From: a virus | Virus record (IMG/VR): IMGVR_UViG_3300017739_000006 | DNA: 64,000 bases | Reading direction: 5' to 3' (one strand) | In this document: piece by piece, positions 26,950-33,580 of the stretch | Layout of the letters: every line of letters starts with the position of its first letter | Numbering within the stretch: the first letter of the stretch is position 1 | The notes under the pieces: model-generated | Databases searched by the model: none | Seen by the model: the letters and a program-made list of their open reading frames with translations, nothing else | Told to the model about the DNA's origin: nothing | Made by a program: the position numbers and the translations under genes

Positions 26950-27401
26950 GCGTCTATCAAGATCTAAAAGATCTAGCAAACAATAGAGCACAGGCACCTT
27001 CTTGGTGGAGGAGTCAATTGTTCTTCTACCTATCAGGTCGTGGTATAGATGGTCCTGCTGTGGGAGGAGTATGTACTTTCCAGTATGCAGCAGAGTATGC
27101 AGAGAAGTATCAGTTCTGGGACAAATATCCTTTGGTGTATGTCATAGGTGAGTCAACGAACCACTTTTGGGGTGCTAATGTACACTATCTACCACCTCAA
27201 GCACGGGTCTCAGGGTTCACTCCGTCACCACCTCCTGTTACTCTGCATAAATACTTGCGAAGTAATGTTTTATCACCCTATTACAGCATTGAAAACTCTG
27301 AGTGGGCAGATATTGGTTTGATTCCCTCCGAAGAATTTGTAACCACTGTCAACGGAAGAAACATATCCGTACCAACGTCGTTAGTATTAAAGAAACTCTG
27401 A
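26946..27401 (+). CDS. gp2: DNA end protector-like protein
   Basis: FQY.A...WDKYPLV...FWGANVHYLPP; follows gp4. Confidence 0.7.
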   Translation: MSVYQDLKDLANNRAQAPSWWRSQLFFYLSGRGIDGPAVGGVCTFQYAAEYAEKYQFWDKYPLVYVIGESTNHFWGANVHYLPPQARVSGFTPSPPPVTLHKYLRSNVLSPYYSIENSEWADIGLIPSEEFVTTVNGRNISVPTSLVLKKL

Positions 27402-28126
27402 TGTCATACGCAGCACCCAATTCATTTAGATCATTCACAGACCTCGTTTCTAAGGGAGCGTGGGAACCCTCCCGTGGTAATCTTTACTCTGTAGAGATTG
27501 GATTCCCTGGTGTCTTGGGATCTGCAGCACTTAATGGTGGTGGGACGATTGCATATGGTAGAGAATATTATGACGCTGTAAATTATTTTGCTGATCAAGT
27601 TACTATCCCTTCAAGAAACTTGACGACTGGAGACACTCAGAACTTTGGTCTTCAAAGATCATATGTAACAGGACAGACACCTAATGAACTAGCAGTGTCA
27701 TTCTTAGTGACAAAGAACCAGTGGCATAGAAATTTCTTTGAGACTTGGATGAATTCTATTGCACCTGATGGTGAGAACAGAGTCAGTTTCTATGATGATT
27801 ATATTTGTGACATTATTGTAAGGAAATGGGAGAGAGGATCTAACTTTATCGTGCAGACCGTGAAGAAAGGACAAAAATATCAAACACGTTTAAATAAAGC
27901 AGTTGGTATATGGAGATTCAATGGAGCATATCCATTCAACCTAGGTACAATGACCTTCGGTAACAGTAATTCAGAAGTGATGAGATTAGATGTACAGTTT
28001 AAGTTTGAGCGTTATAGATTTACTACAAAACAAGAGAAGGCAGGTGGTTGGACCAACGAAAAGGTTATAAACAATATAGATAGTGTTCTCGACGATAATG
28101 ATTTCAGGACCTACGTCGGGGTCTAA
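27401..28126 (+). CDS. Tail tube / baseplate tube initiator family protein (gp19/gp54-like)
   Basis: RGNLYSV, VTIPSRNL, FFETWMN, AYPFNLG, LDVQFKF. Confidence 0.75.
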   Translation: MSYAAPNSFRSFTDLVSKGAWEPSRGNLYSVEIGFPGVLGSAALNGGGTIAYGREYYDAVNYFADQVTIPSRNLTTGDTQNFGLQRSYVTGQTPNELAVSFLVTKNQWHRNFFETWMNSIAPDGENRVSFYDDYICDIIVRKWERGSNFIVQTVKKGQKYQTRLNKAVGIWRFNGAYPFNLGTMTFGNSNSEVMRLDVQFKFERYRFTTKQEKAGGWTNEKVINNIDSVLDDNDFRTYVGV

Positions 28127-28155: not shown

Positions 28156-28860
28156 ATGCCTTTACCCAAACTGAGCATTCCAGATTATGAATGCGTGCTT
28201 CCTCGTGGTCAAAAGGTTACCTATAGACCATTCCTAGTGAGAGAAGAGAAACTTCTTTATCTTGCTATGGAAACACAGGATAATAAAGAGATGATCAAAG
28301 CGGTGAAAGAGATTATCAAGAATTGTACCAACCTCAAGAAACTTGATGACCTTGCTACATTTGATATTGAATATCTCTTTCTTAGAATCCGTGGTAAATC
28401 TGTTGGTGAGGTGAGTGAATTTAAGATCACTTGCCCTGATGATGAGAAGACTCAAGTTGATGTTGAAGTCAACCTTGATGATGTGAAGGTAATAATTCCT
28501 AAGGAACATACCACCATTCTTAAAGTCAGCGATGATGTCACTATCACTATGCAATATCCATCCTTGGATGTGTTTGTGAAGAATAATCTCGTTGACAACC
28601 CAGGTGTAGACGATCTATTCAAACTTGCTGCTAGTTGTACTGAAAGTATTGCTGAAGGTGAGGATGTATATGAAGGAAAAGATCACACAACTAAAGAACT
28701 AGTTGAATTCTATGAAAATATGAACTCACAACAGTTCGGTTTAGTTCAGAAGTTCTTTGAAACTATGCCTAAACTCTCCCATACTATTGAGGTTTTCAAT
28801 CCGAAGACTGAAGTTACATCACCAATTGTACTCGAAGGACTAGCAAGTTTTTTCGCGTAG
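28156..28860 (+). CDS. gp26: Baseplate hub assembly protein
   Basis: MPLPKL, YRPFLVREEK, FDIEYLFLRIRGKSVGE, C-terminal EGLASFF; TAAATA at 28124. Confidence 0.93.
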   Translation: MPLPKLSIPDYECVLPRGQKVTYRPFLVREEKLLYLAMETQDNKEMIKAVKEIIKNCTNLKKLDDLATFDIEYLFLRIRGKSVGEVSEFKITCPDDEKTQVDVEVNLDDVKVIIPKEHTTILKVSDDVTITMQYPSLDVFVKNNLVDNPGVDDLFKLAASCTESIAEGEDVYEGKDHTTKELVEFYENMNSQQFGLVQKFFETMPKLSHTIEVFNPKTEVTSPIVLEGLASFFA

Positions 28861-28880
28861 CCCTAGCGCACGATTCGTTG

Positions 28881-29054
28881 ATGAACATCTATGAGACCAA
28901 CTTTGCTTTGATGCAACATCATAAGTACAGTCTCACAGAACTTGAAAATATGATGCCGTGGGAAAGGGATGTTTATGTGAACCTCTTGATGCGTTACTTA
29001 CGTGAGGAAGAGGCAAGACAACGCCAACAGGCGGGACAACACCAGTCACTTTAA
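28881..29054 (+). CDS. gp51: Baseplate hub assembly catalyst (57 aa; missed by the ORF track)
   Basis: YETNFALMQHHKYSLTELENMMPWERDVYVNLL. Confidence 0.9.
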   Translation: MNIYETNFALMQHHKYSLTELENMMPWERDVYVNLLMRYLREEEARQRQQAGQHQSL

Positions 29055-31552
29055 TGGCAAAAGCAGCACCCAAGTTATCAATAAGAAACTTTATTCCTGT
29101 CACTACCTCTGGTATGGACAAGAAGGATCCTGCAATGTCAATGACCCTAGCGGTCAACCGATTGGGACATACTGTCACCGATGTTGGTAAGATTCTCACA
29201 AGTGGACACCAAGCACGACTTGATGCAGCGTACGCTGTGCAAGGGAGAAGATCTCTAGCACAGGACAGGGCGAGAGAGAGTAAGATTGAGAAGAAAGCAA
29301 CTGAAGAGATAGAAAGAGAGTCGAAATCAAGAGGATATTCAAAGGGTGGGAGTGGTATCTTTGGGTTCCTATCACCATTAATAGAACCACTGATTAAATT
29401 TGCGGCAACTCTTGGTACATTCTTTGCATTAGACTGGTTGTCTAAGAAGGAAAACAAAGAGTCAATTCGGACTGGGTTCGAATGGATCGGTAAGTGGTTG
29501 GGCACGGTCTGGAAGGTTGGATCGTGGGGATTCGGTATGATATATGATGGACTGTTCGATCCAGATGGGAACGACAGTTACTTAATGAGAGCGTTGAAGG
29601 TTGTAGGGGGCATCGCCGCGCTCAAGGTAGCAAGTAGGATTTTAATGCCCTGGAAGTTGGCAGGAGATATTGGTAAACTATCAAAATTATTTAAAGTTAA
29701 TCGTACCAAGGCAACAAAAAACGCAAAGAAAGTAAATCAAAATAATTTCTTAAAGCAAAAACCAAAAAGAGTAGCAAAAGGTATCAGGTCTGGTAACGCA
29801 TCAAAGGCAGCACGAAAGAGATACGCTAGAAGATTTGGTGGCAATGCATCCAAGTCAAGATTCGGTGGTCGTATTGCAGGAAGGGCAGGATTTAAAGGTA
29901 TGACAGGTATGGGTCGCTTTATGCGATCTGGTGCTGGTGGAGGTATATTTGCAGGTGCACTCTCATTTGGATCCAGACTCGCTGCTGGTGACAAAATGAA
30001 TGTAGCAGCAGGTGGAGGTATCGGTGCCACTATTGGTACAGTTGCGGTCACTGCACTGTTAACACCTGTCCTAGGACCATTCGCACCTATTGTGGGTGGT
30101 GTTCTAGGTGGGTTCTTTGGAGATAAGATTGGAGCGTTCCTTGGAGAGGCAATAGAACCTGTTCTGAAACCTCTTGGAGATTACTTTAAGAATATTGCTT
30201 TACCAATGTTTAATGCATTTGTAAAACCAGTTGCAACAGCAATACAAAATTTGTTTGAACCTTTGAAGCACGTCCTTGATATGGTGCTTGAGTTTATTGC
30301 ACCTATTGCAGGTGCTGCTTTCCAAGGTTTGATGGACTATGTTATTGGTCCTGCTGCTAAGGCAGCGTTAGATAGTATTGTCTGGATATTTGAGAAAGCA
30401 ATATGGGCAATTAATAATGTTGGAGGATTTATTAAAGGTACAGGGAATACTTTAACCAGAGTCATTGGTAGTGATGGTCAAAAGGCAATGGCACAGGTAG
30501 AGAATGAAGACTATGATGTGAAGAGATTGAAGGCAGAACTTAAAGTAATAAGAGAAAGAATTGCAAATGGTGAAGGTGGAAGTAGATCTGCCTGGTTTGG
30601 GGTTGATGGCGTGTTCAAGACATCAAATGGTGCTCCAGGGATGACCATTATGAATGGACACTGGAATGGTTTAGGTTCAACCAACGAAGAAAAAGCGAAG
30701 CACTGGGAGAATGTTTTAATACCGTTCGCTGAAGAAAAAGCAGCGAGTGCGAAGGCAGCATTGGCACAGTTTGAGATGGCACAACCTCAAACTTCTATGG
30801 TCGATGATCCATTTGTATCGAAGAAAGGTATCGGTACCGATGATAGTCCTGTACCAAAAGGAGGACGTATAGATTTCCAAGGACACGGTGATGGTGCTAC
30901 TGGTGTGCTACGTCTGTTTGATGGTAAGAATAGAAAGATTGGTCAGTGGGAAGCGATTAGTGGTCAATATAGTACAGCAGGCACATCACAATCACAAAGA
31001 AGAAACGTATCTGGTGCTCTTTATCCTTTACCAGATGGTAAGTATCCTCTTGTTGGATTTGCAGAACACTCAAATGTAAGTGGTATTGGAACTTGGTCTA
31101 CCTTTATTAACAATATGGGTGGTGTTATTGGTAAGAGATCTGCAATTCAACTTCATAATGATATTAATGACAATGGTACTGCAGGTTGTGTTGGTGTGAC
31201 TCTTGGTGGTACTGCAGGTAATAATAAAGATAAGGATTTTGTGAAAAAATATAAACAGGTGATGCCAGAAACTATAAGAGTTTCTATCGCTAAAGGTGCA
31301 AAACAGTTGAGCACTGGACCTTCACCTAGTCCTGACAATAGAGAAATCAGACCAACAGATCTAAATAGTACGAAGACTAGTGAATTAACACGGTCATCTC
31401 AACAACAAGATACCGAACTAAGTTCTGGAGATGGATCTTCAATGGTAGTATTCCAACCAATTATTAAACCTGTTGTCTCAGAGACTGGTGTGATAGGAGT
31501 ACAAACGGTCACTAAGTCTGGTGATTTCTCTCTAACAGGTTTAAATTCATAA
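29054..31552 (+). CDS. Tape-measure/gp29-like protein with a C-terminal YkuD/Tlde1-like domain
   Basis: Helical N-terminus, Gly/Ala-rich hydrophobic repeats, C-terminal IQLHND...GTAGCVG. Confidence 0.65.
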   Translation: MAKAAPKLSIRNFIPVTTSGMDKKDPAMSMTLAVNRLGHTVTDVGKILTSGHQARLDAAYAVQGRRSLAQDRARESKIEKKATEEIERESKSRGYSKGGSGIFGFLSPLIEPLIKFAATLGTFFALDWLSKKENKESIRTGFEWIGKWLGTVWKVGSWGFGMIYDGLFDPDGNDSYLMRALKVVGGIAALKVASRILMPWKLAGDIGKLSKLFKVNRTKATKNAKKVNQNNFLKQKPKRVAKGIRSGNASKAARKRYARRFGGNASKSRFGGRIAGRAGFKGMTGMGRFMRSGAGGGIFAGALSFGSRLAAGDKMNVAAGGGIGATIGTVAVTALLTPVLGPFAPIVGGVLGGFFGDKIGAFLGEAIEPVLKPLGDYFKNIALPMFNAFVKPVATAIQNLFEPLKHVLDMVLEFIAPIAGAAFQGLMDYVIGPAAKAALDSIVWIFEKAIWAINNVGGFIKGTGNTLTRVIGSDGQKAMAQVENEDYDVKRLKAELKVIRERIANGEGGSRSAWFGVDGVFKTSNGAPGMTIMNGHWNGLGSTNEEKAKHWENVLIPFAEEKAASAKAALAQFEMAQPQTSMVDDPFVSKKGIGTDDSPVPKGGRIDFQGHGDGATGVLRLFDGKNRKIGQWEAISGQYSTAGTSQSQRRNVSGALYPLPDGKYPLVGFAEHSNVSGIGTWSTFINNMGGVIGKRSAIQLHNDINDNGTAGCVGVTLGGTAGNNKDKDFVKKYKQVMPETIRVSIAKGAKQLSTGPSPSPDNREIRPTDLNSTKTSELTRSSQQQDTELSSGDGSSMVVFQPIIKPVVSETGVIGVQTVTKSGDFSLTGLNS

Positions 31553-31555
31553 ACT

Positions 31556-33580
31556 ATGAGTAAGATAAGACTATACAAATACGTCACACCACCTAAAGAG
31601 GCAGATGGTGCACAGATGACTGTCGGTAAAAAAACATTTACCACCACAGGTTTCGTCCCGACAGTTAAAGCAATTAATTCCCTAGGAGCGACTGTAAATA
31701 GTATTGGTCTTGCACTGAAGAAGAACCAACTAGCACAACAAAGACTTATGGATGAGCAGCGCCGCTTTGCTGCTCTTCAAGCAGATAGACAAAGAGAAGC
31801 AGCGATAGAAGCAAAAGGAGATACTGCAGATAGTGCAATCAGTGCCACAAAGGGCGCTGGTTTGGGATTTATGGAATATTTGATGAAATTCCTTAAAAAC
31901 CTCTTGATATTTGGTGCACTCAATTGGTTATCTAAGAAAGAGAACCGAGAGAAGATAGTAAAAGCGTTTGAGATGGTTAGTGGGTTATTTAAGTGGATTG
32001 GGAACACGATAAATTGGTGGAAACAGAAATATGGCGAGTTATTTGGCGAAGATAGTGATGGATGGACCAGATTCAAAGCAGCAGCAAAAATGCTTGGTGC
32101 AGGACTTGCTGTATTAGCAGGTTTATCATTCCTGAAGAATCCTATCGGAACTGTCAAAGCATTTGGTAGTATTATTGGTACTATCGGTAAAGGTATCCTG
32201 AATCTGGGTAAATTCCTTGGTGGCAACCCTCTAGGTCAGTTAGCACTAGCAGGTGCACAGGGTGCTGCAGCATATCAGGATGTATCACAGAACTATGACG
32301 GTGTTGAAGAAGACAGGATGGCAGCGGCGAGAGGTGCTGGTATTGGTGCTGCAGGTGGCGGTATGGCACTTGGTATGATCGGCAACCAGATTGCAGGTCC
32401 TATCGGTGGTTTGATTGGTAACGCTGTTGGTGGATTACTAGGAAAAGAGGCAGGCAAGTTCCTTGGACCTATAGTTGGTAATTTCTTTAATACTATTAAG
32501 GAAGCATTTGACTTTATGATGCAGACACTTGATGAGTTCTTTAAACCTTTAAGAGAGGCAATTACAGAACTTTTCAAAGCAGTGGGTCCTCCATTGCAGA
32601 TGATAGTAGATGCGATCAAACCACATCTACCTAAATTACTGTCGTTTGCCGAATTTATGGGTAAAGCGGCATTCTTCCCACTGATCAAAATGATCGAAGG
32701 GTTGACATTTTTCCTCAAGATGATTCCTGGGGTGCAAGAGAGAATGGACGCGGCAGAGAACGCAAATAACGAAGATACGCCAGAAATGTCCATAGGTGGA
32801 ATCGTTCCACAGACTGCAGTTCTACCTGAGAAGTCGGATGGTGGTTGGATCTCTGGACCACAATCAGGTTACCCAGTATCACTCGATGGTGGTAAGTCCG
32901 TATCCTTTATCGGACACGGAACTGAATATGTGGCACAAAGATCTCGTGGGGGTTTTGTTGTTCCCTTTAATACCCCCCATACTAAGAAAGACCCTGGACT
33001 TACTAGTAGAAGAATTCAACAAGCAACTTCTGCAGGATATAAAGTCCCTGGATTTTCTATGGGTGGTACAGTTCCTTTTGATTTCGGATCTAAAAAGTCA
33101 ACAGCAGTTTCATCACTACCCCCATCAAACTACGGACAATATAAAGGATATTCATTTGGTGGTATGTTGAAAGGTATAGGTTCAGCAGTGGCATCGGCAA
33201 CTCTACCCCCAGGTGCACAGGCAGCAATGAACTTTATGCAACCACATATCAATACTGCTGCACAGAATATTGGTGGTGTTGTGAATAATGTTGTTGATAT
33301 TATGCCACCTGCACTTAAAGCAAGAACTGGTAATATTATTAATAAAACAGTTGCAAATATCAAGAGTATTGCTACTAAGGTCAAGACTAGTGACCTAAAT
33401 TCTAGTATAGAGACTATGGTTGCTGAAGCAATCGTACTACCTACTGCTAAAACTAGTTCAGGTGGTGGTGGCGGTACCCCTGTTGTACAAAAAGGTAATC
33501 CCAATCCAGCGAATGACTTCTTGTCTAGCAGGTTTGGTAGAGTTGCTGAATCCGCTAGTGTATTGAGTAATCTGTTCTGA
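31556..33580 (+). CDS. Second tape-measure/gp29-like protein
   Basis: Same architecture as the upstream gene (coiled coil, LxWL..KEN, Gly-rich TM-like repeats); GGWISGPQSGYPV motif. Confidence 0.6.
   Translation: MSKIRLYKYVTPPKEADGAQMTVGKKTFTTTGFVPTVKAINSLGATVNSIGLALKKNQLAQQRLMDEQRRFAALQADRQREAAIEAKGDTADSAISATKGAGLGFMEYLMKFLKNLLIFGALNWLSKKENREKIVKAFEMVSGLFKWIGNTINWWKQKYGELFGEDSDGWTRFKAAAKMLGAGLAVLAGLSFLKNPIGTVKAFGSIIGTIGKGILNLGKFLGGNPLGQLALAGAQGAAAYQDVSQNYDGVEEDRMAAARGAGIGAAGGGMALGMIGNQIAGPIGGLIGNAVGGLLGKEAGKFLGPIVGNFFNTIKEAFDFMMQTLDEFFKPLREAITELFKAVGPPLQMIVDAIKPHLPKLLSFAEFMGKAAFFPLIKMIEGLTFFLKMIPGVQERMDAAENANNEDTPEMSIGGIVPQTAVLPEKSDGGWISGPQSGYPVSLDGGKSVSFIGHGTEYVAQRSRGGFVVPFNTPHTKKDPGLTSRRIQQATSAGYKVPGFSMGGTVPFDFGSKKSTAVSSLPPSNYGQYKGYSFGGMLKGIGSAVASATLPPGAQAAMNFMQPHINTAAQNIGGVVNNVVDIMPPALKARTGNIINKTVANIKSIATKVKTSDLNSSIETMVAEAIVLPTAKTSSGGGGGTPVVQKGNPNPANDFLSSRFGRVAESASVLSNLF

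Follow-up and report, generated by a model that had tools for sequence, protein, structure and literature searches.

A predicted -1 frameshift joining gp26 and gp51 in T4-like marine phages, compared with the lambda G/GT tail assembly chaperones

Phage lambda makes gpG and gpGT by means of a tail-chaperone frameshift that is conserved among phages, as reportedly described by Levin, Hendrix and Casjens in 1993 and by Xu, Hendrix and Duda in 2004, 2013 and 2014. Tail chaperone frameshifts are also known in the myophages P2 (gpE/gpE+E') and Mu (gp41/42), which are represented by the Pfam family PF10109 (Phage_TAC_7). The sequence U_UUU_UUC belongs to the classical tandem-slippage class of heptamers; close variants are used by P2 E/E' (T_TTT_TTG) and HIV-1 (U_UUU_UUA). 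In Escherichia coli dnaX a -1 frameshift takes place on A_AAA_AAG with the help of an upstream Shine-Dalgarno (SD)-like stimulator and a downstream hairpin. According to a 2016 review, nearly all long-tailed phages have the -1 frameshift in their tail assembly chaperone (TAC) genes, "except T4" (PMC5009743). The hub assembly chaperones listed for T4 include gp26 and gp51, of which gp51 is essential, required for hub assembly, absent from the particle and of unknown function (PMC3004832). The present analysis concerns gp26 and the small gp51 open reading frame (ORF) behind it in a 64,000-nucleotide stretch of viral DNA (the window; IMG/VR record IMGVR_UViG_3300017739_000006). These two are very probably one recoded gene with a short and a long product, the latter made by -1 frameshifting; this would be a chaperone frameshift of the G/GT type in phages that had been held to have none. 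A joined gp26-gp51 coding sequence (CDS) is annotated in none of the 12 GenBank/RefSeq records examined, and full-text literature searches turned up no published description of a gp26/gp51 frameshift.

The elements of the junction, with lengths of products in amino acids (aa) and distances in nucleotides (nt), are the following.

28156..28860, plus strand: gp26, the 0-frame short product, 234 aa, 26.7 kDa (PF12322 T4_baseplate, 4.7e-69; phrog_150 'baseplate hub', 1.3e-77)
28834..28839, plus strand: GAAGGA, a purine-rich SD-like element 8 nt 5' of the heptamer, candidate dnaX-type stimulator
28848..28854, plus strand: slippery heptamer T_TTT_TTC, in X_XXY_YYZ phase with gp26, where tandem -1 slippage of tRNA-Phe is proposed
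28858..28860, plus strand: TAG, the gp26 0-frame stop in the window sequence, one codon past the heptamer
28854..28880, plus strand: -1-frame bridge R V A L A H D S L from the slip site to the annotated gp51 start, overlapping the gp26 stop
28854..29054, plus strand: the whole -1-frame extension, 66 codons and TAA, including the annotated 'gp51' ORF (28878/28881-29054), recognized by phrog_634, phrog_150 and BLASTP

The 3' end of gp26 reads AGT TTT TTC GCG TAG, so that the heptamer lies in gp26 phase at exactly the position given in the original prediction, which had been made from the letters of the window. That prediction also held that the -1 frame is open from the slip into the gp51 ATG at 28881 and that this ATG lacks an obvious SD, and the window sequence agrees on both counts: no GGAG-type SD motif is seen in it before ATG 28881. 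Read after a slip, the sequence would be FFRVALAHDSLM, with R V A L A H D S L M following the two Phe codons, and the frame is open into the gp51 ORF (TTG 28878, ATG 28881) and ends with TAA at 29052-29054. The bridge would be translated only if ribosomes enter it in the -1 frame. The predicted long form consists of gp26 residues 1-233 plus the -1 extension, in total 299 aa and 34.6 kDa.

Both parts of this predicted protein have relatives among known families. PF12322 matches gp26 over residues 9-234 with 232.9 bits (curated cut-off 24.5 bits), and the ESM Atlas cluster for gp26 is 100% PF12322 with a TM of 0.96. The small gp51 ORF matches phrog_634 'baseplate hub assembly catalyst', with 3.2e-29 when the bridge is included. 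On the phrog_150 profile (282 positions), gp26 covers positions 5-232, the small ORF 243-278, and the extension with its bridge 232-278. Since this one profile matches both gp26 and the small ORF, some phrog_150 members must hold the two parts in one chain.

In the mechanism proposed here, most ribosomes would stop at the TAG (28858-28860) and release the 234-aa gp26. A fraction would slip back one base on T_TTT_TTC, with the P- and A-site tRNA-Phe re-pairing on UUU UUU; these would read CGC next and add 66 residues, ending at 29054 with the 299-aa gp26-51. By analogy with lambda gpG/gpGT, the TAC-like body of both forms would coat the tape-measure/hub protein encoded just downstream, and the small helical module at the C-terminus of the long form would bring in a further component of the tail or hub. 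Both forms would depart before the tail is completed. We infer that the slip occurs, and likewise its rate, its stimulators and the binding partners.

The locus resembles lambda G/GT in that two overlapping ORFs stand between a tube-fold gene and tape-measure-like genes, and a -1 shift is predicted to give a second, C-terminally extended product. The modelled N-terminal fold of gp26 appears TAC-like, and the T4 homologues of the pair act as chaperones in assembly, gp51 not being part of the particle (PMC3004832). There are also differences from lambda. The short form (234 aa) is about twice the size of gpG and has an extra α/β body, with a four-Cys zinc ribbon in many relatives, whereas the extension is short (66 aa) and helical. 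The heptamer is U_UUU_UUC instead of the G_GGA_AAG of lambda, and no Pfam TAC family matches above threshold. With P2 and Mu the locus shares contractile tails and a U-rich X_XXY_YYZ heptamer where the chaperone gene ends, 5' of the tape measure gene, but the sequences are not significantly similar (PF10109 E 0.13, in 2/39 members) and the domain sizes differ.

Conservation of the junction was examined in 268 loci gathered from IMG/VR contigs and annotated GenBank records. The gp26 queries against IMG/VR came from the window, pelagiphage Mosig, Sinorhizobium phage phiM12, Cronobacter phage S13 and KVP40; the last query gave only 2 IMG/VR loci, and the KVP40 lineage is thinly sampled. These loci contain 204 distinct 350-nt junctions, with gp26 identities to the window down to 27%, and span cyanophages, pelagiphages and phages of the phiM12, S13, KVP40 and Aeromonas 65 types. 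An in-phase T_TTT_TT(C/T) occurs within the last gp26 codons in 203 of the 204 distinct junctions, and in 203/203 outside the T4 genus. The variant is TTTTTTC in 180 and TTTTTTT in 23; for example, loci L250 and L104 both carry T_TTT_TTC. Heptamer positions 1-6 have zero entropy among 178 distinct 111-nt segments, where neighbouring positions have 1.1-2.0 bits. The codon 5' of the heptamer is always NNT (AGT, GAT, GCT, AAT, TCT, ACT, CAT or, in L104, GGT) and encodes seven amino acids (S, D, A, N, T, H, G). Elsewhere in the same genes T is the third base in 56% of the codons for these amino acids, and 65% of Phe codons are TTT. Because heptamer positions 1-6 and the wobble T in front of them are invariant against these 56% and 65%, the nucleotides are under selection beyond what the Phe-Phe dipeptide demands. 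The conservation of the heptamer is far beyond chance. A 0-frame stop follows 0-1 codons past it in 141 of 201 tallied junctions. The heptamer and the open -1 bridge, whose conservation in T4-like cyanophages had been put forward as a check, are kept across the Kyanoviridae, the pelagiphages and several other T4-like lineages.

A run of T could also lead to slippage in transcription, with RNA polymerase adding one U so that gp51 comes into frame on a subset of the mRNA. The site is a homopolymer, and runs of 7-8 T are found in 23/203 relatives; however, the run has only 6 T in 180/203 junctions, few for polymerase slippage to be productive. The phase is strictly X_XXY_YYZ in 203/203, as is characteristic of tandem tRNA slippage. 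In addition, RNA-library contigs from two studies span the site without an indel. This weakly indicates the genomic T6 in the bulk of the RNA, given that contigs drop rare variants and do not report transcript ends or expression level. Transcriptional slippage is the weaker alternative to tRNA slippage and is very unlikely.

Homopolymer runs are error-prone in sequencing as well, and an in-frame version of the two parts exists (T4-genus gp51), so it might be asked whether a continuous gene has been split, either by an error in sequencing or by a frameshift mutation of recent date. The frame offset is identical in 203 distinct junctions from isolates and metagenomes, the 0-frame stop soon after the heptamer is itself conserved, and the exact stretch 28300-29400 is present in DNA runs of at least 9 studies (2016-2025; estuary, marine, seawater and viral metagenomes). 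The 203 independent junctions together with these DNA runs exclude a sequencing artefact, and artefact or decay taken together has a negligible probability.

Coding in the -1 frame is seen along the whole extension. Across the 204 junctions the -1 frame has a median of 62 open codons past the gp26 stop; the +1 frame has 6. The most variable sites upstream of the heptamer are 0-frame third positions (1.70 bits vs 0.84 at second positions); from nine bases past the heptamer start they are -1-frame third positions (1.53 vs 0.87 bits), and this includes the part before any annotated gp51 start. The periodicity thus switches from the 0 frame to the -1 frame exactly at the heptamer, and -1-frame coding, as read from these substitution patterns, begins at the heptamer rather than at the annotated ATG. 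In 155/201 junctions the -1 reading opens with an Arg codon, CGN, of which all four synonymous forms are in use, and the 0-frame codon that overlaps it varies (V, A, G, E or stop) in the same 201. A bridge peptide F-F-R-[VI]-[AG]-L-x-H-[DNT]-x-L is common to phages from the cyanophages through the pelagiphages. In the 183 junctions where the search pattern located a conserved N-F-A-L-M motif, the distance from heptamer to motif is 15 codons in every case, with zero indels.

These observations bear on another explanation, in which gp51 is an independent small protein started from its own ATG or TTG (28881/28878) or by termination-reinitiation, and the T-run is nothing other than Phe-Phe codons. 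Its attractions are that the window ATG is 20 nt past the gp26 stop, that a separate gp51 is annotated in many GenBank records, that FF is invariant in the gp26 alignment, and that one phage, Cygsa01, described below, has a stop-start overlap and no heptamer. Yet the 15-codon bridge contains no ATG in 120/183 junctions and no ATG, GTG or TTG in 76/183, and of the 63 bridge ATGs that do occur, 62 have no SD-like motif. The bridge 5' of the ATG is conserved as a -1-frame protein with -1-frame wobble periodicity, and the codon before the heptamer has an invariant wobble T. Moreover, T4-genus gp26 keeps F-F, F-I or L-F without slippery codons, and T4-genus gp51 is an in-frame fusion of both parts. 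An independent gp51 is very unlikely. The extension is kept and open, with no gp51 gene annotated, in ACG-2014b, S-WAM1, S13 and Aeromonas phage 65 (L002, L001, L086 and L283). ACG-2014b has no ATG ahead of the conserved motif, and in Aeromonas phage 65 the gp51-like extension is annotated only as a 26-aa ORF.

The T4 genus has a different arrangement. T4 gp26 has 208 aa and T4 gp51 249 aa; the window gp26 is a clear homologue by PF12322, and T4-genus gp51 runs colinear with the predicted long form in body and extension alike. In contrast to the one gene with a predicted frameshift found here, the T4-genus forms are separate, divergently transcribed paralogous genes with no slippery site. The T4-genus phage L087, for example, has 26 and 51 as two separate genes with diverging transcription, gene 26 being followed by gene 25. 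The T4-genus gp51 (250 aa) matches PF12322 over residues 1-201 (4.7e-55), its residues 200-246 align with the window bridge plus gp51 (BLASTP 1e-05), and phrog_150 spans it from end to end. In alignment A2, its ...VF-KLLVNPDEIF...MIPAER... stands opposite ...FF followed by RVALAHDSLM...MMPWER... in the -1 frame of the frameshifting phages. From this colinearity in A2, BLASTP and phrog_150 it follows that T4-genus gp51 is the in-frame version of the predicted fusion and T4-genus gp26 the short form. The slippery codons are missing in the T4 genus (TTC TTT, TTC ATT and TTA TTT are found there), and Phe-Phe is not strictly kept. The complete 181,945-base-pair (bp) genome to which the window belongs has a single PF12322 gene, so a long form is possible there only by recoding.

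The gp26 proteins of the T4 genus (seen in L268-L278, T4-genus and related IMG/VR loci) end in EFF-ELL*, EFF-KVL*, EFI-RIL* or EFI-DIL*, which looks like the first three residues of the gp51 extension (VF-KLL-VNPD) and then a stop. This suggests, from the sequence, that T4-genus gp26 arose from a duplicated in-frame long form that was then truncated. In such a duplication one copy would have been truncated just past the slip position (gp26, ...EFF-ELL*) and the other fused in frame (gp51, ...VF-KLLVNPD...).

The structure of gp26 was compared with solved chaperones by way of an AlphaFold model, which has a predicted local distance difference test score (pLDDT) of 90.7 and shows an N-terminal domain (about residues 1-93) and an α/β body. 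In an exhaustive comparison with 48,161 solved chains, ranks 1-3 went to 3fgx_B, 3klu_A and 2ob9_B, all of which cover residues 1-93. The match to 3fgx_B has a Z of 8.0 and an rmsd of 4.1 with 83 residues aligned; YqbN (3klu_A) and the HK97 tail assembly chaperone (2ob9_B) each have a Z of 6.8. When Foldseek candidates were re-compared, 2ob9_A gave Z 7.0 and 3klu Z 6.8, and the next row Z 2.3. The entries 3fgx, 3klu and 2ob9 are named as phage tail assembly chaperones (PMC9603447). The N-terminal domain of gp26, as modelled, is TAC-like. Two other searches gave nothing of this kind. Foldseek with the whole gp26 model against the PDB and AFDB/Swiss-Prot found no significant match (2ob9_B only at E 1.9, probability 0.33), and the profile of alignment A1 against PDB sequences gave a chance-level match only.

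As a natural in-frame homologue of the fusion, a T4-genus gp51 from IMG/VR (L271) was modelled as well (pLDDT 93.1). It repeats the gp26 body and adds helices at 196-248. A wide structural search with this model returned generic three-helix-bundle matches to the extension, the best with Z 5.7, which neither repeat nor contradict the TAC match. A complex prediction for a 68-aa extension with the upstream tube-like protein scored 0.00 without controls, which speaks neither for nor against binding. The wider claim of the original prediction, that gp26 and gp51 form a G/GT-like chaperone system, is supported by gene order, by the TAC-like fold of the gp26 model, by the colinearity of T4-genus gp51 and by the listing of the T4 proteins as chaperones (PMC3004832).

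A few features of the gp26 protein itself may be noted. A four-Cys zinc-ribbon pattern (C..C ... KCxxCG) is present in alignment A2 in the gp26 of S13, KVP40, L097, L104 and the T4 genus. Cyanophage and pelagiphage gp26, including that of the window (28400-28460, 28790-28830), has one such Cys (CPDDEKTQ), and NPKT replaces KCxxCG. Relatives of the whole gp26 fold are found in BFVD, with E 1e-5 to 1e-8, in large myophages that are remote from T4, among them Bacillus SP-15, Campylobacter CP220, Ralstonia phiRSL1, Pseudomonas PaBG, Leptospira LE4 and a 'cysteine-rich protein' of the Ackermannviridae.

In 190/203 distinct junctions the heptamer is preceded by an SD-like motif whose end lies 8-10 nt away, and in this purine-rich element and its spacing the locus is like dnaX. 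It is a possible stimulator of the slip; it overlaps conserved Glu-Gly codons, and the two causes of conservation are confounded. The locus is unlike dnaX in having no conserved downstream hairpin, and in that the long form is here the frameshift product, where in dnaX it is the short one.

Several observations weigh against a frameshifted chaperone pair and have to be set beside those given so far. The 234-aa and 299-aa products are predicted from the sequence. No conserved downstream hairpin or pseudoknot was found by RNAalifold in 166 distinct sequences, which gave no consensus pair. The folding of the downstream region has a mean z of -0.43 over 203 junctions; in the window the z of the minimum free energy ranges from +1.6 to -0.9 for 40-100 nt downstream. 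Because no conserved downstream structure was found, the efficiency of the frameshift may be low. Part of the T-run is explained by FF being partly kept as protein sequence and by the AT-richness of the genomes. The chaperone assignment has its own weak points. The structural Z scores are moderate (6.8-8.0) and come from a model, and the Pfam TAC families match only below threshold (PF06896 Phage_TAC_3 with E 0.072 and PF10109 Phage_TAC_7 with E 0.13, each in 2/39 gp26 homologues). For these two reasons the N-terminal domain of gp26 is called TAC-like and not a member of a Pfam TAC family. In the window, ATG 28881 and TTG 28878 may permit some independent or re-initiated translation of a 57-aa gp51. 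Finally, Pseudomonas phage Cygsa01 (PP179332.1, L282:1260-1500; phiW-14-like) has no heptamer: its gp26 ends ...AGC ATT TTC ACC TAA with a TAATG stop-start overlap, and the gp51-like ORF remains in the -1 frame. Since Cygsa01 has TAATG and no heptamer, the C-terminal module may act as a separate peptide in some lineages, and separate, coupled translation may be a third solution beside the frameshift and the two genes of T4.

On balance it seems probable that gp26 and gp51 are the 'missing' G/GT chaperones of T4-like phages, with one gene and a -1 frameshift in most lineages (cyanophages, pelagiphages and phages of the KVP40, S13 and phiM12 types) and with the frameshift exchanged for gene duplication in the T4 genus. 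If so, a conserved gp26-gp51 frameshift in the T4-like phages examined outside the T4 genus, bar Cygsa01, would remove the T4 exception, and the conserved tail-chaperone frameshift would be without exception among long-tailed phages. The role of T4 gp51 has been open for decades, and this long-puzzling 'catalytic' protein would become a GT-type recruiting form acting on the gp29 tape measure. The pair would be a natural case of a frameshift pair resolved into two genes, and gp26/gp51 would gain a testable model in which a short and a rarer long chaperone act on the tape measure. The reading also has implications for annotation. In such genomes the gp51 part often lacks an annotation or has an arbitrarily placed start, and because no joined CDS is annotated in the records examined, the protein sets for hundreds of genomes of cyanophages and other marine phages probably lack the long product.

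The genes on either side of the pair are the following.

27398..28126, plus strand: tail-tube-fold gene (gp54 / gp19.2-like baseplate tube initiator; Pfam PF23849 Phage_TTP_2, 6.2e-08; phrog_45 'tail tube', 9.5e-44)
29054..31552, plus strand: first large tape-measure-like / hub gene, 832 aa (phrog_790, 1200, 2588 and 17500, families common to the next gene)
31556..33580, plus strand: second large tape-measure-like gene, 674 aa (phrog_1200, 1.9e-88; phrog_167 'tail length tape measure protein', 8.4e-09)

The gene upstream of gp26 is annotated as gp54/gp19-like also in Mosig, phiM12, S13, KVP40 and Aeromonas phage 65. The ATG of the 832-aa gene overlaps the stop of the -1 extension (TAATG), and a gene in its position is noted as tape-measure-like in phiM12. 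The identification of the genes at 29054-33580 as tape measures is moderately supported, phrog_167 matching the second gene only. The order of tube-like gene, gp26/51 and tape-measure-like gene is kept in six lineages, the window and five others, and in S13 and KVP40 gp3 comes next after the tape-measure-like gene. The two tandem large genes of the window share phrog_1200, 2588 and 17500; most non-cyanophage relatives have a single gene of about 600-650 aa in their place.

The parent record of the window, a marine cyanophage, is a complete virus genome with terminal repeats present, and its relatives are marine Synechococcus and Prochlorococcus myophages of the Kyanoviridae. As the recurrence of the exact junction stretch among public DNA runs indicates, this phage type is widespread. 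It is probably also transcribed in situ, with DNA carry-over into the RNA libraries being possible.

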